Origin: an uncultured virus (IMG/VR IMGVR_UViG_3300025061_000003)
Taxonomy: Duplodnaviria; Heunggongvirae; Uroviricota; Caudoviricetes
DNA: 20,000 nucleotides
IMG/VR virus record: IMGVR_UViG_3300025061_000003
Direction: 5' to 3' (one strand)
Part shown: positions 1-20,000 of the stretch, one piece after another
How positions within the stretch are numbered: position 1 is the first letter of the stretch
How the letters are laid out: each line of letters opens with the position of its first letter
Notes under the pieces: model-generated
What the model saw: the letters and a program-made list of their open reading frames with translations, nothing else
Databases searched by the model: none
Told to the model about the DNA's origin: nothing
Made by a program: the position numbers and the translations under genes

Positions 1-2
1 AG

Positions 3-593
3 AATATAAAAAACTCTATTAAGCAAACTCGAATTCAAGCTATTTTATTTAATGTATTAATATTTCCATTAATATATTTTTTGCCACCTGAATATTTAGG
101 ACTTTCTATTGCTTCTCTTGGTTATCCAAGTGGGTTGTTTTTAAATACTTTTATTCATGCTGGAATATTGCATATCGCTATGAATATGTTAGTTACTTAT
201 CAATTTGGTGAGCTAATCGATGAACTTTATCAAAAGAAAGAACAATACCTTCTTTATTTTGCATTAGGCATTCCCATCACAGCTATTATGTATCTATATA
301 TTTATACATTACAACCAGAAATCTTATTAGTAGGTTATTCAGGAATTGCTATGGGATTAGTTGGTGCTTGCTTTAGATTTTTTCCTAAACCTGCTAAAAA
401 GTCTATTGCATTACAGCTTATCATCTTCCATGTCATTATTATTGCTTTTGAATTATCTGTTTCTTGGGAAGCGCATTTAACAGGATTTGTTTTTGGGATG
501 CTTTACTCTTACAATAGATTTTTATATAAGCAACCTCAAAATCTACCTGATGATTATGACGGTGAAGATAATCGTTCTATTGCTAATTTTTAA
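3..593 (+). CDS. Rhomboid-family intramembrane serine protease (5' end outside window)
   Basis: Rhomboid motifs HAGILHIAMNM (HxxxxHxxxN), GYSG (catalytic Ser, GxSG) and EAHLTGFVFG (catalytic His, AHxxGxxxG), with several hydrophobic TM segments. The frame is open from position 3 (NIKNSIKQTRIQAILFNVLIFPLIYF-), so the TTG at 81 is probably not the true start. Confidence 0.9.
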   Translation, partial: NIKNSIKQTRIQAILFNVLIFPLIYFLPPEYLGLSIASLGYPSGLFLNTFIHAGILHIAMNMLVTYQFGELIDELYQKKEQYLLYFALGIPITAIMYLYIYTLQPEILLVGYSGIAMGLVGACFRFFPKPAKKSIALQLIIFHVIIIAFELSVSWEAHLTGFVFGMLYSYNRFLYKQPQNLPDDYDGEDNRSIANF

Positions 594-603
594 GAGTGTT
601 TAA

Positions 604-1446
604 ATGAAAATACAAACACCTATGCAGACGTTAAGAGATCATTTGAAAAATTTTGATCTCTTAACTAAGCAATTTAATCTTACAAGAAAACGCTTTCAAC
701 ATAGAAAGTCTAAATCTGCTATGTATCCTCATAAAGACAAAAAGGCTATTCACTCTGACTTTTTAATGGTTTTTTATCATGATACACTTGGTAAAGAAGA
801 TTCTTTTGGTTTTAAATTTACTTATTTGGATACAAAGAAAAAAGAAGTTATTAAAGAACAATATTTTGAAATTAATTTTAAAATTAATGGAGAAATATAT
901 AATTCAAAACTTTTTTCAATTCAAGAAGCTAAATCTGTTCTTAAATTTATTAATAATTCAATAAAAGAAAATCATTTTGATAAAATCTCTTTCTTTGAAT
1001 TTTTAAAAACAAATTTTATGATTTCAGATAAAGAGTTGATTAATAATTATGAATTATTTGAGGCTGAATTTAATAAAGAGTCTAAACATTTGCAAAAAGA
1101 ACTTATATTTCAAGAAGCCAATTCCAATACCTTATTTAAACTAATTAGAACAAAAGAAGTTGAGTTGTACGAGTTTGTTAACGAACTTGAAGAAACAAAA
1201 CGAATTGAAATATTGGAATTAAAAATTAAACAACTAAGAATGCAAGTAAATCAGAAAAAATTAGATAAATACAATGAATTAGAAATAAAAAAATATAAAG
1301 ATTTATTAGAACACTCAAAATCCAAAATTGATATTGTCATTGAAGACATTAATCGTTTAATTATGAAAATTAATAAAAAATTTAATATTAAATCTTCCAT
1401 TGTTAATAAATTTAAAAATAAATTTTCCCAAAATGATGAATTTTAA
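604..1446 (+). CDS. Hypothetical protein, C-terminal half probably coiled-coil
   Basis: 280-aa ORF starting 10 bp after the rhomboid stop; K/E/L-rich heptad-like C-terminal half; no recognised motif. Confidence 0.7.
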   Translation: MKIQTPMQTLRDHLKNFDLLTKQFNLTRKRFQHRKSKSAMYPHKDKKAIHSDFLMVFYHDTLGKEDSFGFKFTYLDTKKKEVIKEQYFEINFKINGEIYNSKLFSIQEAKSVLKFINNSIKENHFDKISFFEFLKTNFMISDKELINNYELFEAEFNKESKHLQKELIFQEANSNTLFKLIRTKEVELYEFVNELEETKRIEILELKIKQLRMQVNQKKLDKYNELEIKKYKDLLEHSKSKIDIVIEDINRLIMKINKKFNIKSSIVNKFKNKFSQNDEF

Positions 1447-1482
1447 ATTTTTTATATTATAATAGTATTAAAAGGATTTAAT

Positions 1483-1998
1483 ATGACTAAAAATGAAATT
1501 TTATTTAAAAAACTAAAAGGTTCTGTATTGGCTTTTGTTGATTATTCTACTGATCCTAATGCATATATGCCTGAAACAGTTAAAAAGGATTATCTTGAAT
1601 TAAAGGAAATGGAAGGTTTAAAAAAAGAATTTGGATATAATGCACTACCTTCTTCTGGATTATCAACTATTACTAAATTAAAAGAAAGAATTGATACTTT
1701 TAATGAGAATATAAATTCTTTAATTGATAAAATTAATTTATTTAGCAATCTTGATATTGATATCAATAATAAAATAACACAAATGGAAAGCTTATCTGAA
1801 GTTTTAAAAGTTAAAGGAAATACTGTTAAAGAAAAATCAATTTTTCAGGCTAATCAAGAAATGAATTTTGTATTAAATAAACACAAACAAACATTAAATG
1901 TAAATTTACCAGATGATAAAGAATTGATAGGTGAAATAGAAAGTTTATTAGAAACTAAAAATAGTCCTCAAAAATATACAAAGAAGGCTTCATATTGA
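1483..1998 (+). CDS. Hypothetical protein
   Basis: 171-aa ORF with AAGGA RBS upstream and TATAAT at 1458-1463; followed by a hairpin terminator. Confidence 0.75.
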   Translation: MTKNEILFKKLKGSVLAFVDYSTDPNAYMPETVKKDYLELKEMEGLKKEFGYNALPSSGLSTITKLKERIDTFNENINSLIDKINLFSNLDIDINNKITQMESLSEVLKVKGNTVKEKSIFQANQEMNFVLNKHKQTLNVNLPDDKELIGEIESLLETKNSPQKYTKKASY

Positions 1999-2007
1999 AG
2001 CCTTCTT
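1981..2007. terminator. Probable bidirectional intrinsic terminator
   Basis: Perfect 12-bp stem AAGAAGGCTTCA-tat-TGAAGCCTTCTT at the junction of convergent genes 1483-1998(+) and 2018-2437(-). Confidence 0.75.
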
Positions 2008-2017
2008 ATTAATCACT

Positions 2018-2437
2018 TTAATTTTCTTTGTATTCTTTTAATTCAAAATAAGCCCTATATCCATAAATATAATTCATCGTTAATTCATAATTTTTTTCTT
2101 CTGTTATTTTAAATCCAATTTTTTCTATCATTTCTTTATTTATATCTAATTTTTCTTTTTCTAATAAATAAATTGCCTTTATTATATAAGTTTTTTCTTG
2201 TTCTAATGCTGCTTCCTGATAGTCAAGCTCTACAACTCCTTCTTTAAACTCTATATCTCTAAAAATATTTAATACTGTTTCATGCTGGTTTGAGGTTTTT
2301 ATTTCATAAGCCACTTCATCTACTTCCATTTCATTTACTTCCATTTCATTTAACCAATCACTTATTAAACCTGCACTCGTTAAGCCAGAAAATAATATAA
2401 TAAAGCTTGCCATTATAATTTGTATTGTGTTTTTCAT
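2018..2437 (-). CDS. Hypothetical exported protein (Sec signal peptide)
   Basis: N-terminus MKNTIQIIMASFIILFSGLTSA is a typical signal peptide; AAGGT RBS upstream; has its own promoter at 2468-2496. Confidence 0.75.
   Translation of the reverse strand: MKNTIQIIMASFIILFSGLTSAGLISDWLNEMEVNEMEVDEVAYEIKTSNQHETVLNIFRDIEFKEGVVELDYQEAALEQEKTYIIKAIYLLEKEKLDINKEMIEKIGFKITEEKNYELTMNYIYGYRAYFELKEYKEN
2321..2350. repeat. Perfect 15-bp tandem duplication (NEMEV-NEMEV) in the exported protein gene
   Basis: TACTTCCATTTCATT occurs twice in tandem, in frame. Confidence 0.85.
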
Positions 2438-2467
2438 TTTAATTACCTTTTTTATTTTAATTTAATC

Positions 2468-2496
2468 ATTATATATTAAATACTCTTTATTTTCAA
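2468..2496 (-). promoter_or_regulatory. sigma70-type promoter for 2018-2437(-)
   Basis: Minus strand TTGAAA-N17-TATAAT. Confidence 0.65.
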
Positions 2497-2523
2497 TTAT
2501 TTTGTTTCAATTTTAAATCCAAC

Positions 2524-2552
2524 TTGATATTTAATCTATATTGTTTTATAAT
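2524..2552 (+). promoter_or_regulatory. sigma70-type promoter
   Basis: TTGATA-N17-TATAAT; divergent from the 2468-2496 promoter. Confidence 0.65.
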
Positions 2553-2583
2553 ATTCACTTCTTTTGGCAACTTTATACTTAAT

Positions 2584-3066
2584 ATGATTAAAAGTAAATT
2601 TAAAACAAATACAGAGTCAAGAAGTTTTTATTTGAAAAATAAAGACATATTGCTGAATACAAAAGACTTTGTTAATCATTCAGTGTTTTATATAGAAAAA
2701 CACTATTTTCAACATTTTATTGAATCAAATTCTTTTGTAAAATTTTTATTTTATAATTTTTTGGAAAAATTTATTAGAGAAGAATTTAAAGATTCTTTAT
2801 TAAAATTAAAATCAAAATCTTGGCTTTATGTTTTTGATTTTAGAGATAATACTTTTATAATAAAAGATAAACAATTTATTTCTTTTGTTGATGATAAAGA
2901 GTTAAATGAAGAATTTAAGAAAGAATTTACTTTTTTATTTTTTGTATGGTTTATTGAAAATAATCATAAATTTAACATTAAAAGTCAAATGCATTCATCT
3001 GCTGTAAAAGCTATATTAAGTAAAAAAGATAAAATATTAATTAAATCAAGAATGAGAGATTTTTAA
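2584..3066 (+). CDS. Hypothetical protein
   Basis: The ORF-track start (TTG 2524) coincides with the -35 box, so ATG 2584 (MIKSKF...) is preferred. The stop overlaps the next start (TAATG). Confidence 0.65.
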   Translation: MIKSKFKTNTESRSFYLKNKDILLNTKDFVNHSVFYIEKHYFQHFIESNSFVKFLFYNFLEKFIREEFKDSLLKLKSKSWLYVFDFRDNTFIIKDKQFISFVDDKELNEEFKKEFTFLFFVWFIENNHKFNIKSQMHSSAVKAILSKKDKILIKSRMRDF

Positions 3067-3611
3067 TGAAAATTAAAGAAAGACAAAATCAAGAAGAAAA
3101 ATTTAAAAATTATTTAATTTCTTCTCTAAACTTTGTAACAAAAGATAGCGATTTATATACAGAAATTAAATTAAAAATTAAACAATCTAATTCAAATACT
3201 TTTTTTTCTGACTATCATTCTAATTTTAATAAACTTTTTTCGACAAACAAAGAATTTGTTAAACTTGTTATAGATAATAAAATTGTAGAACATTCTTATT
3301 ATTATAATGATTTAACTACATTAATTTCTTATTATTTTAAAGATGCTGATATTGATAAAATTGTTTTTTTTGCTGAACTTTATTATATCCATAAAGAACT
3401 AAATCAGGTAGAATTTATTATTTCTAATAATTTAACCAATCTTTATAAAAGAAAACATCATAGGTTAACTTATTTTCTTTTGAATGCTTCAATAATGAGA
3501 ATTTTTTGCATAAGAAAAGAACTTACTTTAAAAAATATTATAAAGAAAACACCCAAACTTGGTAGCATTTATAAACGAATTAATGTTATTAATAATATAG
3601 ACTCTTTTTAA
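3066..3611 (+). CDS. Hypothetical protein
   Basis: 181-aa ORF, translationally coupled to the upstream gene (TAATG overlap). Confidence 0.7.
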   Translation: MKIKERQNQEEKFKNYLISSLNFVTKDSDLYTEIKLKIKQSNSNTFFSDYHSNFNKLFSTNKEFVKLVIDNKIVEHSYYYNDLTTLISYYFKDADIDKIVFFAELYYIHKELNQVEFIISNNLTNLYKRKHHRLTYFLLNASIMRIFCIRKELTLKNIIKKTPKLGSIYKRINVINNIDSF

Positions 3612-3626
3612 TTTTTTTGTTATAAT
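3598..3626 (+). promoter_or_regulatory. sigma70-type promoter with extended -10
   Basis: TAGACT-N17-TATAAT with TGn before the -10; the -35 lies in the last codons of the upstream gene. Confidence 0.65.
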
Positions 3627-3653
3627 ACTACTTTTAATAACAGGAAAAATAAT

Positions 3654-3956
3654 ATGTCTTCTAAATATTACTGTTTAAAATGCCAAGCACCTAATAGCGG
3701 CTGTAAATGTGGTAATACTGATTATCATTTCTCTTATTCTTATAAATTAAGAGTGCCTACTTCCATTAAGAATAAAGTTTTATTTAGAAAATTTTTAGAT
3801 GATTGCCCTATTTTTGTTAACTGTGTGCCTGAAGAATTAAAACCTGCTTTTAGAGATTTATTAAGAAAAGTTAAGTATTTTGATAAATCTATCAATGGTA
3901 GAACTTCTGTTATTGTTAGAAAAAATGAAAAAATGGAAACAGACATTTTTAAATAA
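3654..3956 (+). CDS. Hypothetical protein with N-terminal Cys cluster (possible Zn ribbon)
   Basis: CLKC-x6-CKC near the N-terminus; CAGGA RBS upstream. Confidence 0.7.
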   Translation: MSSKYYCLKCQAPNSGCKCGNTDYHFSYSYKLRVPTSIKNKVLFRKFLDDCPIFVNCVPEELKPAFRDLLRKVKYFDKSINGRTSVIVRKNEKMETDIFK

Positions 3957-3962
3957 TTTTAT

Positions 3963-3991
3963 TTGCTTTCCAACTTTTTTATTGTTATAAT
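3963..3991 (+). promoter_or_regulatory. sigma70-type promoter with extended -10
   Basis: TTGCTT-N17-TATAAT with TGn. Confidence 0.65.
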
Positions 3992-4022
3992 AAACCTATC
4001 TTAATTAATCAGGTAAAAAACT

Positions 4023-4373
4023 ATGAATGGACGTATTGATATTCAAATTCCAAAAAATATCACTCCTTTTTTAGACGCTGCATTTACTTTTGTAGCATTA
4101 CAATCAACCATTAATTCAAAATATTCTTCTGGATTTGATAAGTTTGAATTTAAAAAACGTTTTTCTTCTTCTATTCAAGATAGCGTTGATTTTAAATTTC
4201 AAGCGAATGAAGATGAATTAAGACTTATCTTTGATTTAACACGCTCTCTTATGAACAATCCACAATTTATGACAGCAAAAGAGCGTCAAGATAACAATTT
4301 AACTGACTTTTCTGATTATATTGATAAGCAAGTTAAACATTACAAAACTCTTTATATTAGCTCACATTTTTAA
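4023..4373 (+). CDS. Hypothetical protein
   Basis: 116-aa ORF with CAGGT RBS and its own promoter. Confidence 0.7.
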   Translation: MNGRIDIQIPKNITPFLDAAFTFVALQSTINSKYSSGFDKFEFKKRFSSSIQDSVDFKFQANEDELRLIFDLTRSLMNNPQFMTAKERQDNNLTDFSDYIDKQVKHYKTLYISSHF

Positions 4374-4384
4374 TGTGAGTTAAT
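4356..4384 (+). terminator. Hairpin, possible intrinsic terminator
   Basis: ATTAGCTCACATT-ttt-AATGTGAGTTAAT stem spanning the stop codon, followed by a T-rich tract. Confidence 0.45.
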
Positions 4385-4412
4385 TTATTATTAAATTTCT
4401 GGAGAATTTTAA

Positions 4413-4928
4413 ATGAATAAAAATTTTAAAGTCGGTTTGTTTGGTACTTGTGGTAGTTCAACTTGGCGTAAAGACTTTATTGAAACATATAAAGAACTTG
4501 GTATTGATTATTTTAATCCACAATTAGGTGAGGGCGAATGGACTCCTGAATGTGCGGATATTGAAAATCAACATTTTAAAACTGATGAAATTATTTTATT
4601 CCCTGTTACTAATGAAACTACTGGTCTTGGATCATTAGCAGAAGTTGGATTCTCTATTGCTGAAACCCTAAGAAATCTAAATGAACGTTATTTAGTAGTT
4701 TATATAGATCCTGATTGTATTGATTCAAAAGCTGATGCCAATGAAATTAAAACTTCAATAAGAACACGTAAATTAGTATCTTCAAAAGTTGAACTTGAAG
4801 CTGATATTAATGAAAAAGTATTTGTCGTTAATTCATTAGAAGAAATGAAGTCTCTTTCAATTGAAATTGCTAAATATATTAAAGAAGATTCTTTCTCTAA
4901 AACACAAGAATTTTTTAAGGTTGGTTAA
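4413..4928 (+). CDS. Nucleoside 2-deoxyribosyltransferase-like protein
   Basis: Pattern VGLFGTCGSSTWR...YFNPQ...W...E...IILFPVT...GxGSLAEVG resembles the NDT-like (Nuc_deoxyri_tr2-type) family common in phages, with the conserved Glu in SLAEVG; GGAGA RBS. Confidence 0.65.
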   Translation: MNKNFKVGLFGTCGSSTWRKDFIETYKELGIDYFNPQLGEGEWTPECADIENQHFKTDEIILFPVTNETTGLGSLAEVGFSIAETLRNLNERYLVVYIDPDCIDSKADANEIKTSIRTRKLVSSKVELEADINEKVFVVNSLEEMKSLSIEIAKYIKEDSFSKTQEFFKVG

Positions 4929-5573
4929 ATGATTTATAAACTTAATTCATTAGAAAAAGATTCAGTTTTAAATCTTTTTGACTTTGATTATGATGAATTT
5001 TTCTTTTATGAAAACATTGAAAGAGAAGATTTCATTAAAGCTTTATGTTATTTTTTATCTTTTTTTTCAAATCAAAAAAGTATAGAAAATATTCAATCAG
5101 CCTATTATTCAATACAAAATTCATTTGGTTCTGGTGAAGAAGAACAGTTTTTTAAGAATTTTATTTTTATTAATAAAATTTTAATAGATAAATATAATTT
5201 TTCATTTCTTCGAATTATTTTAAAAGATTTAGATACAATATCAAAATTTGAAGTAGACAGAGAAGAATACATTATTTATACCTGTGAAGAATGCAATGGT
5301 AAGGGCGAAGTTTTTTGTAATGAAGAACAAAACTCTATGCATATTTGTATGGAATGTGGTGGTTCTGGTAATGTTGAATTGTATAATCCAAATTATGATA
5401 TGTTATCTAATAGAGATATTGATAAAATAAAACATATTGAATTTAATTTTAAAAAGAACATTAAAAATATTATCAATACTGTTGTGCAAATAATTTTAGA
5501 AGAAGAATTACATCCTGATATTGGTGAAGTTTATAAACCTTATAAAACCATAAATAATGTAAAAAACTTTTGA
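4929..5573 (+). CDS. Hypothetical protein with DnaJ-type zinc finger
   Basis: Two CxxCxGxG motifs (CEECNGKG, CMECGGSG); no J-domain HPD context in the N-terminus. Confidence 0.7.
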   Translation: MIYKLNSLEKDSVLNLFDFDYDEFFFYENIEREDFIKALCYFLSFFSNQKSIENIQSAYYSIQNSFGSGEEEQFFKNFIFINKILIDKYNFSFLRIILKDLDTISKFEVDREEYIIYTCEECNGKGEVFCNEEQNSMHICMECGGSGNVELYNPNYDMLSNRDIDKIKHIEFNFKKNIKNIINTVVQIILEEELHPDIGEVYKPYKTINNVKNF

Positions 5574-5584
5574 TTTTGAGATTA

Positions 5585-5614
5585 ATTATTGATACAATTA
5601 ATTTTATCAATAAT
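5585..5614. repeat. 30-bp near-perfect palindrome (14/15 per arm)
   Basis: ATTATTGATACAATT|AATTTTATCAATAAT in the intergenic region. Confidence 0.6.
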
Positions 5615-5621
5615 GAGCCAT

Positions 5622-5652
5622 AAATCCTCGCTCAATTCGGGCAGGAATAAAT
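5622..5652 (+). repeat. GC-rich imperfect hairpin, copy 1 (IS200/IS605 end-like or REP-like)
   Basis: AAATCCTCGCTCAATTCGGGCAGGAATAAAT closely matches the reverse complement of 8221-8250. Confidence 0.65.
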
Positions 5653-5959: not shown

Positions 5960-5965
5960 TCTACT

Positions 5966-8267: not shown

Positions 8268-11200
8268 TTATTCACAAATCTCACTACTAGTTAAAGTTTG
8301 ACTTGTATCTGCATTCACTACTGTTAAACTTCCAGAATCAACAGCTTGACAGAAATTAGAACCAACTGCTGGTTTTCTTGTATATTGACTTGGATCATCT
8401 AAATATACAGGGAATGAAGGATTATTAACTTGTAAATTCTCTAAATAAGTAATATCAGTCAAGTTTGGATTACTTGTTAGATATAAGTAACCTTTTAATT
8501 CTGAAAGATTTATTAAACCTGATATATCCACAAGGTTATTACCATTTAAGAATATATCACCTGCTGTGGTTAATGAAAATAATCCATTAATATTATTTAA
8601 ATTATTTAAACTAACATCTAATCTATCTCTTATTTCACTTACACCACCTAAGAAATTTATATGACTTAAATTATTATTTTTTAAGTTTACATTATAAATG
8701 GATAGCACATTCCAATTAGAAGTAGGTATTAAGCTATTATCTATAGCATTATTACTTAAATCAATCGTTATATCATTTGTTTCCATATCAGTAATATAAC
8801 CATAATCTAACATTACTTTATTATCATAAAAATAAGTCATCCAAGGGTTAGTTGATGAACATACTTCACCTGCTTTTAGTATTACTTCACCTTCAAGTAA
8901 ATCCTCTGGTCTTACTTCTGTTGCTAATATTGCTTCACATAATGGTGTTGATATATTTGGTTTATTTGTATATTGACTTGGATTATTAATATATATAACC
9001 GCATTTGATATTTTACTTATTGGAGTTAAATCCTCTACATTATTATTACCATTAATTTTTAACTCTTGATTAACATTTGTTAACTCTTCTATTCCTGTTA
9101 TATTCGATAGGTTATTATAACTAAAATCTACTTCATTTACACTTGTTATATCATTCATGAAATCTATATGTGTTATTTCATTCTCACTTAAATCAAAATT
9201 ATAAATTTCAGGTAAATTAATATCAACTTGTGGTAAATCAGAACTTACTATACCCCTACTTGATAAATCAGCATCAATATTCTCGGTAATCCAATCCGAT
9301 AGTTCTAAGTTATCAAGCATTACTTCTTGTTCAAAGAAATATTGTAACCATTCATTTGTTGAAGAACAAATCTCATTAACATCTACTTGCCTTGTAGTTG
9401 CTTTCACTTCTATAATGATATTATCATTTGCAACATTTATACAGAATGGAGTAGTAACATCTGGTTTTGTTATATATTGTGTTGGTTCATCTACATATAA
9501 TTTACCCAATAATGTTGATAAATCACCTATTTTACTTATATCAACTAATGGCGAGTTTCCTGAAATATCAAAATCTCCTCCAATATAGTTAAGATTTTCT
9601 AATTCTTCTAATGTAACTATATTATTATTATTTAATGATAAATCTCCTTGTACATTTTCAAGACTACCAAGACCATTTATACTTGTTAATGCATTATTAC
9701 TTAAATTTAATTCTTCATTTATATTTGTTAAACCTACTAAGAAAAATACCGAAGTAATATTGTTATTGCTTATATCAAAATTTAATAAGTTCCCTATGCT
9801 TAGAGTACCATCTGGTATATCTGTATCTGTAAATGCATTATTACTTAAATCAATTGGCGTGGTTTGATTATTTAATTCACTTAACTCATTAATATCAAGA
9901 GCTTGACCATTATCCTGAAGGAATTGTAACCATAGCGCACTTGCATCACAAATTTCTAAATAAGACACTACCCTTTCTGTTGTTCTTACTAATACATCTC
10001 CTGCACTAGCTGCCTGACAGAATGGTGAACTACTATCTGGTTTATTTATATATTGACTTGGTTTATCAATGTAAATATAGTTATTGTTTGTATCTGTTAT
10101 ATTTGAGATATTTCTTAAATCTTCTACATTTTCATTTTCATTTAAATAAACTGTTCCATTTACTGTTGTTAATGAGTCTAAACCTTCAAATGTTGTTAAA
10201 TTATTATTACTTAAATCAAGATTATTTACGGTTGTAACATTTCTTAAACCATTTAATGTAGTTAATTGATTACCACTTACGTCTAAATTATTTCTAATAA
10301 CAATAACATCCGACAAAAACTCTATGTCCGTTAATGTATTATTAGCCAGTGATATATTGTAGAATGTATTTACACCAAGCGTAATTAATGGTAAATCTTC
10401 ATTTCCTAATCCATTTCCACTTAAATCTATATTCAAATCTTGAGTTACTAAATCATTTAAATCAATATTCCATAATACCTGATTATAATCATGAAATAAC
10501 TGGAACCATTCGTTTTCTACATTACACACTCTTGCAAGAGCTAACCTTTCACCAGAAGCTTGTAATCTAACAGCACCAGTCTTAACAGCATTACAGAACG
10601 GTGTACCACTTAATGGCTTGTTTGTGTATTGTTCATAATCATCAAGATATACCCAATGATGATGGTTTTGGTTAAATGTTGCACAATTTAAATTAGCACA
10701 ATGATTATGATTGAAATATGTTACAGAAGCTAAATTAGACAAACCTGTTATATCTGTTAATGTTGGGTTTTGATCTAAAAATAAATCAGCATAAGTCATT
10801 TCTGTTAAATTTATTAAACCATTTACATTTTTTAAGTTATTTCTTCTTAAATTAATTGAATAAATATCAGCACCAGGTCTTCCCGTCCAAGTTCCTGCTG
10901 ATTCCGATATTGGTTCATGTTGACCACCAAATCTACCAAGATTTATTAATCCATCTACATTTTCTAATAAATTATCATATAAGAATACATCACCATTATT
11001 AATATTAGTTACACTTACTAATGGATCTATATTTACTAATTGATTACTATGTAAAGAAATTTTATCTCTTATAGTAGACACACCCGATAAGAAATCTATG
11101 TTGTTTAAATTATTATTATTTAAAATAATAGAGTATATTGAATCAACACCTAAATTCCCTTCTGGTAGATTTTCATTTGCTAATCCTAAATTATTTAAAT

Positions 11201-14200
11201 CTGCAATTGAATCATTTGTTTTCCATTGTTGAAGCGAATAATAAGAGTCAAAATCAGAATTTAAATTAAAAGCTTTAAGAAAATCTAACCAAGCGAATTC
11301 TGATGGAGCATCCGAACAAATTGCGTTGGCTTGTTGTCTATCTCCATTATTATATAATTTAACTACACCATTATTTATTCTTTCACATACTATATTTTCA
11401 TCATATACTAATTTTGTATATTGTGACGGTTCATCTATTTCTATTGCATTTGCACTTGTAAATTGATTAAACAAAGATATATCTACAAGATTTGCGTTAT
11501 TTCTTAAATCTAATGTTCCTGTAATTGTTGTTAAATTAGTTAAACCTTCTAAACTTACTCTTCCTGTATTTCTTAAATCTAAATCAACAATAGTTGTTAA
11601 TTGACTAAGAGAATTAATATCAACAATATTTGGATTATTTGCAAGCAATATTCTTTGAGCATTCGTTATATTACTTAAACCACTTATATCTGTTAATGCA
11701 TTATCATTTAAATTCAAGGTTTCTCTAATTGTTGTTACATCTGATAAGAAATTAACATTTTGAATAAAGTTATCACTTAAGTTTAATGTATATAAACTTG
11801 TTACACCAATTAAATTAGGTGGTAAATCAGAATTTTCAAGTGATAAGCCTGTTACTTTTGCAATACCAGCTTTTGTTTGCCATTCTGAAATATCATTATA
11901 CGTTAGTAATTGTCCATTATCTCTAAAGAATAATAACCATAAGTAATCATCAGAGAAGTTGTTACATAAATCTCTGATATCTATTAAATTACCTGTGTAA
12001 TAAGGTAATATAATATCATTTTTAATACCATCACAGAATGGAGTTAAGTAATCAAGCTTTGGTGCATAATTATTAGGATCATCAAATCTTATTTCATTTG
12101 CACTTACAAGATTTTCTAAATCATTTATATTACTTATTGCTGTATTATTTAAATATAATTTATCAACATTTCTTAACCCTGTTAAACCTGATATATCTTC
12201 TAAGTTTATATTATTATTAAAATAAACATTAGTTAAACCAGCAAAATTAGTTAAATTAGGAACTCTTGTTAATTCATTGTATGATAAATCAATATTTACA
12301 AGACCTGTTTGTATATTATCAAGTGGGGATATTTCTGATATACTATTGTTTTGTAAATATAAATTAACGTAATTGGTTATATTACTTAAACCTGTAATTC
12401 TGTTAATTTGATTATCTGAGAAATTTAATGTCCTTCTTACATTTGTAACATTTGACATAAAATCTACATTACTGATATTATTATTATTCATTAACAAATC
12501 ATATACACTTGTTGTTGCCATTGGACTTTCTGGTAGTTGATTATCGTTAAATCCTTTTGAGGATAAATCACCTATTCCGTTATTCGTTTCCCAATCTGAT
12601 ATCTCTGTATAAGATGGTAATTGATTATATGTATGGAATAAATTTAACCATAAATCTTGATCATCTGCATTATTACATAAATAACCCATTGCTATTTTAT
12701 TATTTGAATCACCAATAAACACTTTTATATCTTGTGTTGCTACTGCTTGACAAAATGGTGAGGTTGCTTCCATTATAGTTAAGTATTGTTCTGGAGAATC
12801 AAATTCAACTCTTTGAGCATACGTAAGATTGCTTAATCCACTTATATCTGTTAATGAAGGGTTTGTATGCATTGATATCTCATTGCCTACATAGTTTAAA
12901 TTTAAGAATCCATCAAGACTTATTAATCTATTATTACTTAAATCAAAATTATTTTCTATTCTTGTAATTTTAGTAATACTTGAAATATCATTTATTAAAT
13001 TATTTTGAGCATAAAAACTTTCTCTTACTTCTGTTAAGTTTCTTAAAATATCTAATTGAGTAAAGTTATTGTCTGAAATATCAAACATATATAACTTAGA
13101 AGCATCAATTGGGAATGAAGGGAAGTCATTTTCACTTAATGAATTTCCAGATAAATCAACTTTTGACGTATTATTTGTTAATTCCCAATCAAATATAGTA
13201 TCAGCATCTCTCATTTGTTCATAAGAGTGGAATATATCCATCCATAATGCATGGTTCGGTACGTTATTACAAAGATTAGTAATCGACACAAAATCATTAT
13301 TATATTCAGGAATAATATCACTAGCTGTAATACCTATACAAAATGAAGTATTATAATCTGGTAGTATTGTGTACTGTGTTGGTTCATCAATAGCAAAGTT
13401 TCTTCTTGTTGGATTCACATAAGCTAAATTAGCTAAACCAGTTAAATTATTTAACTTAGGGTTGTTATTTAATAAGAAATCTCTATCAATTCTATTTACT
13501 GTACCTAAATCAACCGTATTTAATAATAAATTATTTGATAAATCTAAATCAAAATCTATATTAGACACACCTGTTGAAACATTGAATGTTTTTAAAGAAT
13601 CATTATTGTTTGCTACAATACTTCCCTCTATATTGCCAATATTATCAATTATAACACTTTCTAATAATGGATTATCATACAATAATAAATCGCCATTTAT
13701 TGTGTTTATTGTTCCTATATTTACGCTTTTTAATGAAGGCATATTATACATTCTTAATTCACCATAAGCTCTTTCTATATTATTTAGTGTTATATTTTCT
13801 AAACTATTGTTTTGGTAAATATCAAGAGAACTTTTTATATATCTCATATTATTTATTGTGAAATCTTTTAATAAATTATTATTTCTTACAATTATTCCGT
13901 AGTTATCTCCTTGATTTAAAATATTATCAATATAAATATTAGTTAAATCTGGATTACTTGTTATTTGTAAGAATCTACCTAAATTGTTAATTGTATTAAT
14001 TGTTATGTCTTCTAATCCTTGATTATTCTCTATTATTAGAGATCTATTAATATTGCCACCACCTATAATTGCATTAGTAAAAGCATTATTATTTAACGTA
14101 TAATCCAACTCTATACCTGCAATTGAGTCTTGAATAAAATTCGTCAAACCTGTATTATTTTCAATTGATAATGCACCTTGGAAATCAACTCCATTTATAT

Positions 14201-17200
14201 TCATATTGCTTAATGAAGTATTATTTATTGATACATCACCACCAATTGTAGTTAATAACGGGTTCTCCAATGTTGTTAATAGTGGATTATTTTCTATTAA
14301 TAAATTACCTGTTAATGTTGATAATTTTGGTAATGAAATGGTTTCAAGAGAAGCATTATTGTTTATCTCTAAATTATTTACACTATTCAATTCTTGTGGA
14401 GCAAATTCAACCATTGGGTTATTTGATACTGTTAAATCATTTATTGAAACAAGAGTATCTAAACCTGTAAAATCTATTAAATCATTACCTTCAAGATTCA
14501 AATTATTTCTTATTGTTGCTACACCATTTAAAAAGCTTACATTCTCAAGATTATTATATGAGATATCTAAATCATATATTGAAGATAACTCAAAAGTCTG
14601 TTGTGGCAATCTATTATTTATTAAATTTCTAGCCGATATATTTGCAGTTGTATTTGTATTTAACCACTTATCAAATGTTGCAAAATTAGTTAACTGATTT
14701 TCCTTATTAAAGAAGTCTAACCAAGCTATGTGGGCTGGAACATTACTACAAATGTCTACATAATATACATCAGAACCATTATATGTAACATTTATTAGTT
14801 TATTGTAATAAGCTTGACAAAATTGAGAATTAAAATCTGGTTTTATTTCAAGTTCTAATGGATTTTTCATTATTACTGTATTAGGGGTTAAATTTGCTAA
14901 TGGACTAATATCATTTAATGGAGTATTTGATATATCTAAATAAATCAATGAATTGAAATTTTCAATTGGTACAAGTGTAGGAATTGCAGTATTATTTATT
15001 CTTAACTCTAATGTACCTGAAACATTTCTTAATATTGATATATCATCAAGGTTTGGATTATATGATAAATTAAGATAATTAATCTCATTTATTTCTTCCA
15101 TTCTATCTAATGATTCAATATCATTATTACTTAATTTAAGATTTTTAATCTTTTGTAATCTTCCTAATCCAGCAATATTATTTATTCTATTATTATTAAA
15201 ATTCAATTCTTCTCTTACAACTTCAACTAAATTTAAAAAACTAATATTTGAAAGTAAGTTGTTAGAGAAATTTAATGAATATATTTGAGTAGTCGGCATA
15301 CGAGCACTTGGTATATCACCAACTGTCAAACTCTTAGAAGCCATTGTTGCTGTTACATCATTTCTTTCCCAATCACTTAAATCAGTAAATCCTATTAGTT
15401 GCCCCTGCGATTGTAAATAGTTTAACCATTTAGCATCATTAGGCACACCATTACATATTTCTGTAATATATATTCTTCTACTTGTTGATTTAACAATTGG
15501 AACAACTAAACCACGCGACATTTCAAAACAAAATGGTGAAGTAAAATCTATTAATTCATATTGCGTTGGTTCATTTAAATAAATTTCTAATCCTTTTTCT
15601 ATATTTTCTATGCCTGATAAATCTATAATATTTGGATTACCACTTAAATCTAATCTTCCTACTCTTCTTAAGTTTGATAATTGAGTAGTATCTGTAATTC
15701 CTGTATTTGATAAATTTATTATTCCTGTTACTTCTTCTAAGTCCTCTAAACCATTTAGGTTTGCAAGTGGATTTCCATTTAATAATAAATCCCCCCTTAC
15801 TTCTTCTAATCCTAATAAAAATCCTACTTCTGTTAAGTTATTGTTCGAGGCATTTAATGTAAATAAAGAACTCAAATTTATTGTACTACTTGGTAAATCA
15901 GCATTGGATATATTTTTATTATTTATATTTGCTACTTCATCAATTGATAACCATTGATCTAAATTACTAAGTTTTAATAATTCTCCCTTTTTATGAAAAA
16001 AACTTAACCATAATCCTTTATCTGAAACGTTTTCACATATTTCTTCTACATAAACTTTTTTATTATTTATTATATCTTCTACATTTACTGTATTAGCAAG
16101 AATTCCTTGACAGAAGGGCGCTGTAAAGTCTGGACGTATTGTATATTGATTAACTGAATCTAATTCTATTTTACCTATATTTACATTAGATATTCCTGTA
16201 ATATCAGATAAATCATTGTTATTATTTAATTTCAAAACACCACTAACTGAATTTAATGTTAATAAAGCATTAATATCATTTATATTATTATTATTTAAAT
16301 ATAAATCGTTTATATTTGTAATATTTAATCCTTCAACATTAATTAATAAATTATTACTTAAATTTAAATTATTAAAGTTATTATTATTTAATGCATTTAC
16401 TTCGGTAATATTGTTATTTGATAATATTAAATTTTCAACAAAGCCATTCAGTGTTGATAAACCATTGATTTCTGAAATCTTATTATTGTTAAAATTTAAA
16501 CTTCCTCTAACAGTATTAACTTCTTGCATAAAGTTTAAATTATCAAGTTCTTGATTTGTTATTTCTAATGTATAAATACTTGATAGTGGTAAATTACTAT
16601 CTGGTAAATTATTATTCAATAAACCTTTAGGATCATTAATCGCGCCTACTTCATTTTTTAATAACCATTGCGACAAACTATTTAGATTATTTAATGTGTT
16701 ATGTTCTGATTGAAAAAAACTTAACCATTCATCTTCTGAACTCACATTCGAACATACATCTTTCATTCCTAACTTTCTGTTTATGTCAAAAACATTTACA
16801 GATAAAGATTTTATAGCTTGACAAAAGTTTGTGGTTGTTTCTGGCTTGAATGTATATTGTGAAGGTTCATCTATTACTAATTGTTCTGCATATGTTAAAA
16901 ATTCTAAATCTAATAATGAATTTACATTATCATTACCATTTAATTTTAAAATTTTTGCAGATTTTAAATTAGATACCGCACCTATATTAGATAAATTATT
17001 ATTACTTAAATCAAGCTCACCTCTTACTCTTGTTATATTATTTAAAAAGAAAGCATTCGCTAAATTATTATCAGAAAAGTCTAATGAGTCTAATGAATTA
17101 ATTCTCATTAAACTATTAGGAATATCTGCATTTGTTAAATTAAGAGTTGAAACATCTGCTTTATTTGGATTGCTTTCCCAATCTGACAAATTATTGAAGT

Positions 17201-20000
17201 TTGTTAATTGACCATTTACTTTAAAAAAGTTTAACCACGCTGTATTTGGATCAGTGTCTGCTGTAAAACAAACTCTTGATAGTGGTAAAGGCGTTGTTTC
17301 TTCTTCAATATATATTGTTACTTGTCCATTTTCTATTGCTTGACATATAGGAGTACTATAAGATAATTTTTCAAATTCATTTGGATTATCTATTCTAATA
17401 GCTGAAGCATTTGTAATTCCTGAAATATCTTTTAATGAATTATAATCATTTCCTTGAAGTCTTAATTCACCTGTTACTACTTTTATTAAATTAAGACCAT
17501 TTAAACTTGTAATATTATTATTACTTAAATCTAAATCACCTCTAACAAATTCTGTAAATGCTAAAAAATCCACATTTGTTAAATTGTTATTAGCAAAAAT
17601 TAAAGTATAAATACTATCAATACCCATAGTTCCTGTTGGTAAGTCTTGATTTGATAAATTTTGACTTGATACATTTGCTTCTTGATCTTGATTTTTCCAA
17701 TCGCTTAAAAATGAAAATGTAGTTAATTGATTAAAACTTTGATAAAACTCTAACCATTTTGCATCATTTGGAACTCCATCACAAATTCCACTTATATATG
17801 CTTTTGAATTAGAATTTCCTATATATGCGACTATTGTATTTTTTATTAAACCAAAACATAAAGGATCATAATAACTCATTTTTGGCATTATTTTAGCTTC
17901 TGGATTTTGACTTTTTCTTCTATTATAAGCCCAATTAGATGCATACAAATTTGGATTAGACATTCTTATAATCACTGGATCTTCAACTGTATTTCCCTCT
18001 ATATTTCTTATTCCACCTATATATTCTAGTAAGGGATTGTCATAAATTATTAACTCTTTTACTTTGCTTAGACTTGATAGTTGTTCTATATTTCTTGATA
18101 AAGAATTACTTGCTATATTTAATGTACCTTCAACTTCTGTTAGTCCTGATAATGGTAATAATGAGTTTATTACATTATTATCTAATAACAAATCACCATT
18201 AACTTTATTTAATCCATTTAGAAAATTTACATTATCAAACGAATTACCTGAAAAATCCAATGTGTATAATTCTGATAATCCCATGTTATAAGCGGGAACT
18301 TTATTGTTATTTAATAATTGATTATCTAATATTGCAGATTCTTCTGAATCACCCCAATCATTTAAATTTTCTAAACTTAATAATTGCTTGTTATTTTTAA
18401 AGAAAAACAACCAAGCATCTTGAGCCGACTTCACACCACTACATATTTCATTTGAAGATACGGGTATAGTTGAATTTTTTCTTGATATCTTAGTTATTCC
18501 TGTCTCTACATTACCACAAAATACAGAGTTTATGTTTGGTTTGTTTGTATATTGAGCAGGATTATCTATTATCACTTCACTTATTTTTTGAATATTTTCA
18601 AGATTTGATATATCTACTAAATTCTGATTATTACTTATATCTAGATTTTCCATTTCAACAATGTTTATTCCAGATAAAGTTGTTAATTCATTATCAGATA
18701 AATTTATATTTTTTGCTGTTATTATATTACTTAAACCATTTAAATCATTAATCTTATTATTTCTTAATATTAAATCACCTCTTAATTCATTTATTACACT
18801 CATGAAATTAATATTATTTAATTGATTATTACTTAAATCAAATGTATAAATTGTTGTTAAAGGAATATTTACATTCGGTAAATCTGAATTAAAATAATTT
18901 TTATTAATTCTTACTATTTCTTCAGAACTTTGCCAAGCTGATAAATTATCATATGATTTAAATTGATTATTTACTTTGAAAAACAATAACCACTGTTCAT
19001 CATCAGGTATATTAATACATAAATCTAATGGACTTAATTTATCTCCACCAACATTAGTAGCCACAATATTTTCGGACGCTAAACCTTGACAGAAGTTACT
19101 TGTATAATCTGGCTTTAAATTATACTGATTTGGGTTATCAAATATTACTCTTTCTGCTTGACTTAAATTTAATAGACCTCTTATATCTTTTAAATTATTA
19201 TTTTTTGATATATCCAATAATACTACTGATTCTAATTGTGATAATCCAGCAATATTTCTTAAATCATTTGATTGTAAATACAAGTTTGTTCTTATTTCTC
19301 TTACCGAACCCAAAAAGTCTATTACTCTCATATTATTTTGTGAAATATCTAAACCAAATACACTATATACACCTATCGTTGTTGGCAAATTAATAAACTC
19401 ACTATAATCAATATTTTGATTACTTAAATCCGCAAAATCATCAAATACAATCCAATCAAATATATTGTTAAAATCAGTTAACTGACCTTTACTTTGAAAA
19501 TAATTTAACCACTCTGAAAATTGTGGTACATTATCACAAATATCACTTACTTCTGCACTTAATCCTGTTGATTGAACAACAAAATCAGCTACGCCATTTA
19601 TAAATGAATTACATAATGGTGTTGAAAAATCTAATTTTTGATATTGATTTGCTTCATCTATATATATTTCATTTACGTTAAATAAATTCTCTATTGGAGT
19701 TAATTCTGTTAACGGGTTATTATTGATAAATAATCTATCAATGTTTGTTACATTTTCTAAACCATCTAACCTTCTTAAACTATTATTTGCTAAGTTTATA
19801 TCACCTTCAACTACTGTTAATCCTGAAAGTTTTGTTACATCTCTTATAAAGTTACCATTAAATACTAAGCTATCTCTTACTTCGGTAACATTTTCCATAA
19901 AGTTTAATGTAGTCAATTCATTATTGCTAAAATCTAAACGGTAAAGACTATTAACACCTAAATCACCAGCAGGTAAATCAAAATTGTTAAAACCTGCATT
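8268..20000 (-). CDS. Giant modular leucine-rich-repeat protein (>3900 aa, 5' end outside window), probably extracellular or surface-located
   Basis: Dozens of LxxLxLxxNxL-type repeats (LDLSNNNL, LNLSNNAL) grouped in 17 complete plus 1 partial modules. The frame is open to the edge (NAGFNNFDLPAGDLGVNSLYRLDFSNNE-L); stop TAA at 8270-8268. Confidence 0.92.
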   Translation of the reverse strand, partial: NAGFNNFDLPAGDLGVNSLYRLDFSNNELTTLNFMENVTEVRDSLVFNGNFIRDVTKLSGLTVVEGDINLANNSLRRLDGLENVTNIDRLFINNNPLTELTPIENLFNVNEIYIDEANQYQKLDFSTPLCNSFINGVADFVVQSTGLSAEVSDICDNVPQFSEWLNYFQSKGQLTDFNNIFDWIVFDDFADLSNQNIDYSEFINLPTTIGVYSVFGLDISQNNMRVIDFLGSVREIRTNLYLQSNDLRNIAGLSQLESVVLLDISKNNNLKDIRGLLNLSQAERVIFDNPNQYNLKPDYTSNFCQGLASENIVATNVGGDKLSPLDLCINIPDDEQWLLFFKVNNQFKSYDNLSAWQSSEEIVRINKNYFNSDLPNVNIPLTTIYTFDLSNNQLNNINFMSVINELRGDLILRNNKINDLNGLSNIITAKNINLSDNELTTLSGINIVEMENLDISNNQNLVDISNLENIQKISEVIIDNPAQYTNKPNINSVFCGNVETGITKISRKNSTIPVSSNEICSGVKSAQDAWLFFFKNNKQLLSLENLNDWGDSEESAILDNQLLNNNKVPAYNMGLSELYTLDFSGNSFDNVNFLNGLNKVNGDLLLDNNVINSLLPLSGLTEVEGTLNIASNSLSRNIEQLSSLSKVKELIIYDNPLLEYIGGIRNIEGNTVEDPVIIRMSNPNLYASNWAYNRRKSQNPEAKIMPKMSYYDPLCFGLIKNTIVAYIGNSNSKAYISGICDGVPNDAKWLEFYQSFNQLTTFSFLSDWKNQDQEANVSSQNLSNQDLPTGTMGIDSIYTLIFANNNLTNVDFLAFTEFVRGDLDLSNNNITSLNGLNLIKVVTGELRLQGNDYNSLKDISGITNASAIRIDNPNEFEKLSYSTPICQAIENGQVTIYIEEETTPLPLSRVCFTADTDPNTAWLNFFKVNGQLTNFNNLSDWESNPNKADVSTLNLTNADIPNSLMRINSLDSLDFSDNNLANAFFLNNITRVRGELDLSNNNLSNIGAVSNLKSAKILKLNGNDNVNSLLDLEFLTYAEQLVIDEPSQYTFKPETTTNFCQAIKSLSVNVFDINRKLGMKDVCSNVSSEDEWLSFFQSEHNTLNNLNSLSQWLLKNEVGAINDPKGLLNNNLPDSNLPLSSIYTLEITNQELDNLNFMQEVNTVRGSLNFNNNKISEINGLSTLNGFVENLILSNNNITEVNALNNNNFNNLNLSNNLLINVEGLNITNINDLYLNNNNINDINALLTLNSVSGVLKLNNNNDLSDITGISNVNIGKIELDSVNQYTIRPDFTAPFCQGILANTVNVEDIINNKKVYVEEICENVSDKGLWLSFFHKKGELLKLSNLDQWLSIDEVANINNKNISNADLPSSTINLSSLFTLNASNNNLTEVGFLLGLEEVRGDLLLNGNPLANLNGLEDLEEVTGIINLSNTGITDTTQLSNLRRVGRLDLSGNPNIIDLSGIENIEKGLEIYLNEPTQYELIDFTSPFCFEMSRGLVVPIVKSTSRRIYITEICNGVPNDAKWLNYLQSQGQLIGFTDLSDWERNDVTATMASKSLTVGDIPSARMPTTQIYSLNFSNNLLSNISFLNLVEVVREELNFNNNRINNIAGLGRLQKIKNLKLSNNDIESLDRMEEINEINYLNLSYNPNLDDISILRNVSGTLELRINNTAIPTLVPIENFNSLIYLDISNTPLNDISPLANLTPNTVIMKNPLELEIKPDFNSQFCQAYYNKLINVTYNGSDVYYVDICSNVPAHIAWLDFFNKENQLTNFATFDKWLNTNTTANISARNLINNRLPQQTFELSSIYDLDISYNNLENVSFLNGVATIRNNLNLEGNDLIDFTGLDTLVSINDLTVSNNPMVEFAPQELNSVNNLEINNNASLETISLPKLSTLTGNLLIENNPLLTTLENPLLTTIGGDVSINNTSLSNMNINGVDFQGALSIENNTGLTNFIQDSIAGIELDYTLNNNAFTNAIIGGGNINRSLIIENNQGLEDITINTINNLGRFLQITSNPDLTNIYIDNILNQGDNYGIIVRNNNLLKDFTINNMRYIKSSLDIYQNNSLENITLNNIERAYGELRMYNMPSLKSVNIGTINTINGDLLLYDNPLLESVIIDNIGNIEGSIVANNNDSLKTFNVSTGVSNIDFDLDLSNNLLLNTVDLGTVNRIDRDFLLNNNPKLNNLTGLANLAYVNPTRRNFAIDEPTQYTILPDYNTSFCIGITASDIIPEYNNDFVSITNLCNNVPNHALWMDIFHSYEQMRDADTIFDWELTNNTSKVDLSGNSLSENDFPSFPIDASKLYMFDISDNNFTQLDILRNLTEVRESFYAQNNLINDISSITKITRIENNFDLSNNRLISLDGFLNLNYVGNEISMHTNPSLTDISGLSNLTYAQRVEFDSPEQYLTIMEATSPFCQAVATQDIKVFIGDSNNKIAMGYLCNNADDQDLWLNLFHTYNQLPSYTEISDWETNNGIGDLSSKGFNDNQLPESPMATTSVYDLLMNNNNISNVDFMSNVTNVRRTLNFSDNQINRITGLSNITNYVNLYLQNNSISEISPLDNIQTGLVNIDLSYNELTRVPNLTNFAGLTNVYFNNNINLEDISGLTGLRNVDKLYLNNTAISNINDLENLVSANEIRFDDPNNYAPKLDYLTPFCDGIKNDIILPYYTGNLIDIRDLCNNFSDDYLWLLFFRDNGQLLTYNDISEWQTKAGIAKVTGLSLENSDLPPNLIGVTSLYTLNLSDNFIQNVNFLSDVTTIRETLNLNDNALTDISGLSNITNAQRILLANNPNIVDINSLSQLTTIVDLDLRNTGRVSLEGLTNLTTITGTLDLRNNANLVDISLFNQFTSANAIEIDEPSQYTKLVYDENIVCERINNGVVKLYNNGDRQQANAICSDAPSEFAWLDFLKAFNLNSDFDSYYSLQQWKTNDSIADLNNLGLANENLPEGNLGVDSIYSIILNNNNLNNIDFLSGVSTIRDKISLHSNQLVNIDPLVSVTNINNGDVFLYDNLLENVDGLINLGRFGGQHEPISESAGTWTGRPGADIYSINLRRNNLKNVNGLINLTEMTYADLFLDQNPTLTDITGLSNLASVTYFNHNHCANLNCATFNQNHHHWVYLDDYEQYTNKPLSGTPFCNAVKTGAVRLQASGERLALARVCNVENEWFQLFHDYNQVLWNIDLNDLVTQDLNIDLSGNGLGNEDLPLITLGVNTFYNISLANNTLTDIEFLSDVIVIRNNLDVSGNQLTTLNGLRNVTTVNNLDLSNNNLTTFEGLDSLTTVNGTVYLNENENVEDLRNISNITDTNNNYIYIDKPSQYINKPDSSSPFCQAASAGDVLVRTTERVVSYLEICDASALWLQFLQDNGQALDINELSELNNQTTPIDLSNNAFTDTDIPDGTLSIGNLLNFDISNNNITSVFFLVGLTNINEELNLSNNALTSINGLGSLENVQGDLSLNNNNIVTLEELENLNYIGGDFDISGNSPLVDISKIGDLSTLLGKLYVDEPTQYITKPDVTTPFCINVANDNIIIEVKATTRQVDVNEICSSTNEWLQYFFEQEVMLDNLELSDWITENIDADLSSRGIVSSDLPQVDINLPEIYNFDLSENEITHIDFMNDITSVNEVDFSYNNLSNITGIEELTNVNQELKINGNNNVEDLTPISKISNAVIYINNPSQYTNKPNISTPLCEAILATEVRPEDLLEGEVILKAGEVCSSTNPWMTYFYDNKVMLDYGYITDMETNDITIDLSNNAIDNSLIPTSNWNVLSIYNVNLKNNNLSHINFLGGVSEIRDRLDVSLNNLNNINGLFSLTTAGDIFLNGNNLVDISGLINLSELKGYLYLTSNPNLTDITYLENLQVNNPSFPVYLDDPSQYTRKPAVGSNFCQAVDSGSLTVVNADTSQTLTSSEICE

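Follow-up and report, generated by a model that had tools for sequence, protein, structure and literature searches.

A recurrent hydrophobic-x-x-Phe ending on unrelated proteins of an AT-rich marine element and its possible role as a type IVB export address

This analysis concerns a 20,000-nucleotide stretch of DNA from an uncultured element (IMG/VR record IMGVR_UViG_3300025061_000003), here called the window, which corresponds to bases 52,455-72,454 of a single contig of 72,454 bases with 24% guanine plus cytosine (GC), filed as a virus record. Otherwise unrelated proteins of this contig share a C-terminal tail in which a final phenylalanine is preceded by a hydrophobic residue at position -4 (hyd-x-x-F). 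This C-terminal tag is real, it is selected as a peptide and it is apparently undescribed. Our leading interpretation, held tentatively and with a probability a little short of even, is that a type IVB (Dot/Icm-like) secretion system encoded on a plasmid reads the tail as a C-terminal signal specific to the lineage.

Counts on the contig comprise open reading frames (ORFs) of at least 80 amino acids (n = 79), and the motif, [ILVMF]-x-x-F, was defined after the data were seen. Phenylalanine is the last residue in 26 of the 79 ORFs, against 5.4 expected from a composition null (p 6e-12) and about 10% from a DNA null (p 2.5e-8). The motif ends 21/79 ORFs (0.85 expected), and a longer version with a second hydrophobic residue, hyd-xxx-hyd-xx-F, ends 14/79 (0.4 expected). 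One ORF, at window positions 7640-7909, was swapped out, which gives 26 Phe-ending proteins instead of 27; the position-specific residue counts still use 27. In this set Ile, Leu, Val or Met occupies position -4 in 19/27 and position -8 in 15/27 (6.8 expected in each case). Positions -3 and -2 are polar (-2 in 24/27), and Lys or Arg is found at -5 in 11/27. Typical endings are NKINNF, NKINDF, RAINDF, NKLSDF, NKINEF, KNIDNF and LNINNF. The last 15 residues of the tail proteins are dominated by Lys and Asn, with a mean net charge of +1.1. The spacing of hydrophobic residues at -1, -4 and -8 suggests that the tail could form a short amphipathic helix.

The pattern first came to light in the initial annotation, which reported that six of the nine plus-strand genes in positions 1-5573 of the window end in Phe. 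All six endings lie where it placed them; four fit the proposed [IVM]-x-[NDS]-F, the exceptions being SQNDEF and YISSHF. Beyond positions 3-5573, final Phe occurs in 20/69 ORFs and the motif in 17/69. When C-termini are tabulated against a null over the whole contig, as that annotation had suggested, terminal Phe and a hydrophobic residue at -4 both exceed the composition expectation. Its statement that the carriers are otherwise unrelated agrees with the absence of any paralogue pair among the Phe-ending proteins, and, as it had said, the ending is missing from all three of the window's genes with signal peptides (2018-2437, 7588-7830 and 7945-8202). Only the description of the carriers as small proteins was too narrow, since they range from 81 to 731 amino acids.

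The initial annotation had also raised an effect at the DNA level, be it a TTTTAA bias or a tail that coincides with a -35 box; the context of stop codons would be a further form of it. Such an effect would be in keeping with the low GC content, with TTT as 23 of the 27 terminal Phe codons and with a credible -35 box at 3598. However, internal Phe codon use is comparable (1222 TTT vs 148 TTC), and a Phe codon precedes only 9-10% of off-frame stop triplets and 73/691 of the intergenic ones. AT-matched controls have no excess: 84 unrelated AT-rich viral loci, found by the DNA pattern of the tail and cleared beforehand of the ORFs ending in the seeded tail, yielded final Phe in 52/1054 ORFs (47.6 expected), and the 18 loci with at most 27% GC yielded 15/262 (12.7 expected) with a single motif. 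On the contig, eight different codons are used at -4, and the stops of the Phe-ending genes (TAA 17, TGA 5, TAG 4) resemble those of other genes. Orthologues in a syntenic relative, L005, differ by V to L, I to V and N to D replacements and by exchanges between TGA and TAA while the tail pattern is kept; for the Zn-finger protein at 4929..5573, a 69% identical orthologue ends TTNNLKDF. A -35 box overlies the tail in 4/26 Phe-ending genes and in 5/53 others (p 0.47), so that the promoter at 3598 is credible in itself and incidental to the tail. The proposed check of codon variation thus points to a protein-level signal, and the DNA-level effect is largely refuted; we attach next to no probability to it.

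The rhomboid protease at the start of the window illustrates how the tail is attached. The enzyme has the GYSG serine motif and the WEAH histidine, and G122, S124, G125 and H169 are invariant in 43 alignment rows. In its structural model the predicted local distance difference test (pLDDT) score exceeds 90 over most of the core (residues 1-181), which is followed by a 22-residue coil linker and then by the tail, where pLDDT falls below 50 at 203-207. The eight closest homologues with a native C-terminus, down to 61% identity, end in D-x-R-S-I-x-x-F (row P0008 is not counted here, since it lacks homology in its C-terminal part). Among the next 16 rhomboids, three have a final Phe and none the motif, and several have K-rich, FKIIK-like ends; among more distant rhomboids, 9/131 have a final Phe and 1/131 the motif. 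A sister clade (P0044-P0047, P0054, P0055) carries the K-rich ends FKIIK, LKIIK, FKVLK, FSVVK and FRVL. Since the closest rhomboids keep the tail and the next ones almost never fit it, these alignments identify the tail as a lineage-specific appendage. The look at homologues from elsewhere that the initial annotation had called for therefore bears out its impression of an appended tag, a low-confidence segment beyond the core and confined to the closest homologues.

The tail is unevenly distributed among protein classes, which were assigned by hand from domain, PHROGs and signal or membrane predictions. It is found on none of the 12 exported-type proteins (p 0.013), none of which has even a final Phe, on none of the 18 soluble enzymes (p 0.002) and on 21 of the 58 other proteins. 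Carriers include ORFans, an ankyrin protein, a DUF1281 protein, the Zn-finger protein and the rhomboid. Besides the rhomboid, three predicted membrane proteins have a final Phe, and two of these fit the motif. The asparaginyl-tRNA synthetase (AsnRS) has a final Phe without the motif, which is probably native, and a 266-residue protein ending WFSGF, whose Vibrio homologues lack that ending, may fit the motif by chance. An Atlas search returned nothing for the 181-residue carrier and only unnamed clusters for a carrier of 167 residues. Separately, a candidate second class of tails, basic and then hydrophobic (KKIKP, KKFQI, KRKI, KKIKI, TKIK), lies mostly on enzymes, at contig (G000:C1) positions 4003, 13587, 26950, 34588 and 48330. 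One RNA ligase paralogue carries such a tail and the other does not.

Short C-terminal signals of this general type are known from Dot/Icm systems, where the features described include a hydrophobic last residue and a helix motif of the form F-xxx-L. In Legionella they comprise the RalF-type terminal hydrophobic residue, the E-block read by DotM and the FxxxLxxxK helix read by LvgA (excerpts from PMC7251119 and PMC9302130); Phe476 of VpdB docks in LvgA (PMC7251119, in the portion available). The tail resembles these signals in being short, hydrophobic and C-terminal, in lying on unrelated proteins without signal peptides, in the i/i+4 placement of its hydrophobic residues and in the presence of a Dot/Icm-like machine on related plasmids. 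It differs in its single strict ending with an invariant Phe, in being rich in basic residues and Asn instead of Glu, with no E-block in the last 15 residues, and in its location on a mobile element. Furthermore, no such machine is linked to the element.

On the export interpretation, the element would encode a Dot/Icm system, and the tail in which dozens of its unrelated cargo proteins end, with a hydrophobic residue at -8, basic or polar ones at -6/-5, a hydrophobic one at -4, polar ones at -3/-2 and the Phe, would be the export signal. A putative reader, either a coupling protein or an adaptor, would accommodate the free Phe and the two hydrophobic residues (-4 and -8) in a pocket, much as LvgA does with Phe476 of VpdB. 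The docked cargo would then pass through the Dot/Icm channel of the plasmid into a cell in contact with it, for which a competitor or mating partner is likelier than a eukaryote. Co-evolution with a plasmid-encoded reader may have made the tail sequence lineage-specific. Such an address would explain why neither Sec-exported proteins nor housekeeping enzymes have the tail, why its sequence is lineage-specific and why there is a correlation with the Dot/Icm component IcmB on related plasmids.

This correlation emerged from nine related replicons of the pMPPla107 type, whose genes were called with our own script. Several were sampled in part: pMPPla107 for 850 of 972 kb, FeN3W for 120 of 910 kb, AM1 for 140 of 1,261 kb, Bosea for 140 of 709 kb and Mesorhizobium for 261 of 1,189 kb; the remaining ones were covered completely or nearly so. 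The clearest case is pMPPla107 itself (NZ_CP031226.1), where 131 of 862 proteins end in D[LIM]G[LIM], 120 of them in exactly DLGL. The consensus is R-D-x-hyd-hyd-G/A-x-D-L-G-L, its codons vary freely, and after removal of the tail the carriers fall into 69 blast families. These carriers, mostly of about 400 residues, lie at about 174-940 kb (L150-L182), and none of the 121 that were scanned has a Pfam match at 1e-4. No carrier is found in the first 160 kb, which holds dotA, B, C, D, G, H and I and an IcmB homologue. A second class of about 40 proteins ends in SPSP, SPEP, DLEP or SLEM. Elsewhere in the family, the FeN3W plasmid (L272-L277) has a diverged DLGL-type tail on about 20/103 proteins (ISNEFGL, LSAGLDI), the Bosea plasmid (L285-L291) has P-x-P endings (Pro at -3 in 38/149, at -1 in 31), the Vibrio replicon has an L-S-M tail and the Mesorhizobium contig an x-M tail.

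Taken together as hyd/Pro-x-hyd/Pro, such endings are enriched on all six replicons in which IcmB was found, namely pMPPla107 (233/862 vs 68 expected), Vibrio (119/978 vs 75), FeN3W (35/103 vs 7), Bosea (38/149 vs 11), Mesorhizobium (39/262 vs 19) and, marginally, AM1 (15/118 vs 9, p 0.03). In contrast, none of the three replicons without a detected IcmB shows enrichment: Variovorax has 50/849 (63 expected), Erythrobacter 22/453 (33 expected) and Vreelandella 9/150 (10 expected). Because the pattern was recognised post hoc, in replicons that are related to one another, the tracking of hydrophobic tails with IcmB is only a lead. By analogy, the tails on IcmB-bearing family plasmids would lend support to an export signal on the present element.

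The affiliation of the element with this family rests on the type II secretion family gene (T2SSF, PilC-type) of L005. A metagenome scan for relatives returned only L004 and L005, and in L005 this gene and a pilin-like gene occupy the slot of the giant leucine-rich repeat (LRR) gene of the window. It matches 17 of 72,556 plasmids at 22-33% identity, all of them megaplasmids (347-1,455 kb) and pMPPla107 among them. Of the pilin/GspE/T2SSF cluster, L005 has T2SSF and the pilin-like gene, GspE was not seen, and the contig of the window ends inside the LRR gene. Homologues of the rhomboid and of PilC agree in the length of their longest contig in three further cases (98,780, 39,850 and 45,746 bases), which gives indirect support to their linkage. 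In a PilC tree the clade of the element is solid and joins pMPPla107 weakly (71/76); given this placement, a pMPPla107-type megaplasmid is only a likely identity. The element resembles these megaplasmids in its PilC/T2SSF gene adjoining pilin-like genes, its mostly hypothetical cargo and its lineage-specific tails, and it shares some accessory genes with pMPPla107 (exonuclease, KptA, CYTH, NIF). It differs in its 24% GC, its uncultured marine host and its hyd-x-x-F ending in place of DLGL, P-x-P or L-S-M, and core genes of the family were not seen. The element is marine and recurrent: at least 0.76 of window positions 1-6000 is present in 13 DNA sequencing runs from 8 studies besides its possible source, 12 of the 13 labelled marine or seawater.

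Several observations weigh against the export interpretation. The contig and L005 show no Dot/Icm, coupling-protein or relaxase gene, and a scan of viral contigs with IcmB found no locus; AT-rich-looking IcmB homologues exist, unlinked to the element. The family link hangs on a single gene, which belongs to a relative and matches at 22-33% identity, and the tree node already given is weak. The IcmB pattern was chosen after the fact from nine related replicons, several of them sampled, with our own gene calls; IcmB itself was not found in Variovorax, Erythrobacter and Vreelandella, the last possibly incomplete. The hyd/Pro-x-hyd/Pro endings are not enriched on the present element (9/79 vs 7.1 expected), and hyd-x-x-F is enriched in none of the nine family replicons. 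Four carriers are membrane proteins, one of them the intact-looking rhomboid, and are awkward export cargo, although multi-pass Dot/Icm substrates exist. Finally, each of the nine family replicons has an excess of Ala-Ala endings. We found no orthologue pair between this element and pMPPla107 in which the tail had been swapped.

The Ala-Ala endings lead to the first alternative, in which the tail is a C-terminal degron: a protease of the host or of the element would read it and keep the cargo short-lived, and FtsH would suit the membrane as well as the soluble carriers. Ala-Ala ends 88/453 proteins of the Erythrobacter plasmid (NZ_CP031358.1, L184-L203; 5.9 expected), 56/849 of Variovorax, 28/978 of Vibrio and 16/118 of AM1, in a comparison confined to the replicons. 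Their enrichment on all nine indicates that degron-like C-terminal tags occur in the megaplasmid family, possibly as a mass ClpXP tagging. The K-rich ends of the sister rhomboid clade (FKIIK, FKVLK, FSVVK), which resemble the ClpX-binding end of SspB, would fit as well, and the Vibrio family member encodes the RseP protease. Ala-Ala recalls the LAA end of ssrA, and the tail shares with the C-degrons of ClpXP, FtsH, Lon and Prc the form of a short terminal tag on unrelated proteins (PMC9382460, in part). However, it matches neither LAA nor NYAFA, no hydrophobic-x-x-Phe degron is listed in the available portion of that paper, and the present element has no Ala-Ala ending (0/88 ORFs). In the family, moreover, the hydrophobic tails track IcmB and the Ala-Ala tails do not. 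Stable-looking enzymes lack the tail, though TnpB-like proteins lack it too. To our knowledge, the 11-residue motif of pMPPla107 is also richer in information than known host degrons, which counts against degradation. On balance a degron appears unlikely, if still worth serious consideration.

Alternatively, the tail could be a docking peptide for a hub encoded by the element (a chaperone, a PDZ- or TPR-type scaffold or a compartment) which gathers cargo inside the cell without export. A free terminal Phe on an appended tail, shared by membrane and soluble carriers, is what such a hub could bind, and the Phe-ended tail of SSB, the protein that binds single-stranded DNA, gathers its partners in this manner. 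The lineage-specific tail swaps of the rhomboids would fit a reader that is plasmid-encoded and co-evolving. Domain and PHROGs scans of the contig revealed no candidate for it, and docking does not predict the IcmB correlation of the family tails; we regard this alternative as rather improbable.

The initial annotation had spoken of a replicon-specific sorting signal for capsid packaging, secretion or degradation. That the signal is replicon-specific and acts at the protein level holds; among the destinations, secretion is best supported, a degron is possible and packaging is unlikely. A packaging signal for the virion of a jumbo phage would accord with the filing as a virus record, with the T4-like RNA ligases and with the PNKP-like gene. 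However, a PHROGs scan of 87 proteins of this fragmentary contig returned no head, terminase or structural tail gene, the RNA ligases being the only matches filed under 'tail', and the plasmids matched by the PilC gene of L005 are all megaplasmids. When viral contigs were scanned with the rhomboid, with PilC or its alignment, with the PNKP-like protein and with IcmB, no relative was found; the scan with RNA ligase found three distant phages without the tail (Phe-ending proteins 0/34, 0/25 and 2/36). A genome scan with a single PilC query gave no match; among plasmids, nothing matched the RNase H protein, and the PNKP-like protein had one weak match. A polytopic protease is also improbable capsid cargo, and packaging is consequently very unlikely. 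Lastly, an amphipathic membrane-targeting helix of the FtsA or MinD kind, suggested by the -1/-4/-8 spacing with basic residues in between, is hardly tenable with a hydrophobic face of only two or three residues, a last residue that is strictly Phe and carriers that are integral membrane proteins.

Returning to export, a bolder version deserves mention, although we consider it less likely than not: each lineage of pMPPla107-type megaplasmids might mark many of its orphan genes (some 15% for pMPPla107 and 25% for the present stretch) with an address of its own, hyd-x-x-F here and R-D-x-hyd-hyd-G-x-DLGL in pMPPla107, and inject a Legionella-sized repertoire of unknown proteins, even membrane proteases, into neighbouring cells, the address co-evolving with the Dot/Icm coupling complex. 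For pMPPla107, a Dot/Icm-like system without known effectors has been reported, and 776 of 1080 genes are hypothetical (PMC3136466, in part). No tail is mentioned under the terms looked for in the accessible parts of PMC3136466 and PMC6482414, and the main text of the latter, as far as available, does not mention C-terminal, Icm or effector. Conjugation machines are known to carry many proteins (the F 'conjutome'), some via C-terminal signals (PMC11288057, in part); those signals are diverse and loosely defined, whereas here a single, sharply defined motif recurs on roughly one gene in four. A type IVB system of P. putida kills bacteria (PMC9519443, in part).

Terminal Phe residues with a free carboxylate also occur in the signal of the beta-barrel assembly machinery (BAM), in DegS-type YxF ligands of PDZ domains and in the SSB tail DDDIPF. 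The BAM beta-signal goes with a signal peptide and with alternating hydrophobic residues at -1, -3 and -5. The present tail differs from all three: its -1/-4/-8 spacing is not alternating, with polar -3 and -2, its carriers lack signal peptides, none of the 12 exported proteins has a final Phe, and it is not acidic. We found no published description of a hyd-x-x-F or DLGL tail in a search of mostly open-access main texts. By these comparisons the tail would apparently be a previously undescribed version of C-terminal signals already known, with a reader that is only proposed.

The strictness of the tail provides a list of candidate substrates, 131 proteins in pMPPla107 and 21-25 on this contig, and a minimal testable peptide in a plasmid that is already cultured. 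Should it prove to be an export signal, megaplasmids would deliver proteins on a scale comparable to that of intracellular pathogens, and the recognition of type IV substrates, usually called vague, would turn out to have a code that is sharp and swappable. As a degron or docking tag, it would represent an undescribed means by which a mobile element controls one quarter of its proteome.

Table 1. Genes and other features of the window with their positions
Feature	Position	Strand	Basis or remark
Rhomboid protease, 207 residues	1..593 (start 30 bases upstream of the window)	+	Pfam Rhomboid, E 3.5e-20
Tail R-S-I-A-N-F of the rhomboid, fits the motif	573..590	+	Sequence
280-residue ORFan, ends KFSQNDEF (final Phe, position -4 not hydrophobic)	604..1446	+	Counterpart in L005 ends SKNDEF
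160-180-residue ORFan, ends ILIKSRMRDF (fits the motif)	2524..3066	+	Stop overlaps the next start, TAATG
181-residue ORFan, ends INVINNIDSF (fits the motif)	3066..3611	+	No Pfam, PHROG or Atlas match
Sigma-70-like promoter, TAGACT-17 bases-TATAAT, TG extension	3598..3626	+	Overlaps the last codons of the 181-residue gene
116-residue ORFan, ends LYISSHF (final Phe, Ile at -5)	4023..4373	+	Sequence
214-residue protein with DnaJ-like Zn-finger stretch, ends TINNVKNF (fits the motif)	4929..5573	+	Pfam DnaJ_CXXCXGXG weak, below cut-off
TnpB-like gene	6060-7322		L005 has a 742-residue ORF at the same place instead
Lipoprotein gene (signal peptide)	7588-7830		Overlain by shadow ORF 7640-7909, ending KKDKF
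Giant LRR protein, more than 3,900 residues, no tail	8268..20000	-	Frame open to the contig end

Apart from the tail carriers, the contig encodes AsnRS, two RNA ligases, KptA, a PNKP-like protein, RNase H, DsbA and TnpB. An RNA-repair set extends over contig positions 4003-49115 and comprises two T4 Rnl1-type ligases, KptA/Tpt1, a PNKP-like phosphatase, CYTH and a metallophosphoesterase; it is accompanied by the complete AsnRS, which matches ordinary gammaproteobacterial copies at 60-62%. The set may counter host defences that cut tRNA. The TnpB-like gene is probably a multi-copy insertion sequence, since it is missing at this place in L005 and its contig depth is several-fold higher in all four runs examined. 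The giant LRR protein is possibly a pilus-associated adhesin. At the lipoprotein gene, calling by the longest ORF wrongly picks the shadow ORF. RNA libraries X15 and X16 contain contigs over parts of the window; contigs cannot show transcription, and they were not used as evidence. Lastly, the extended -10 box TGTTATAAT (window 3618-3626) is present in 14 copies on the contig, often directly after stop codons.

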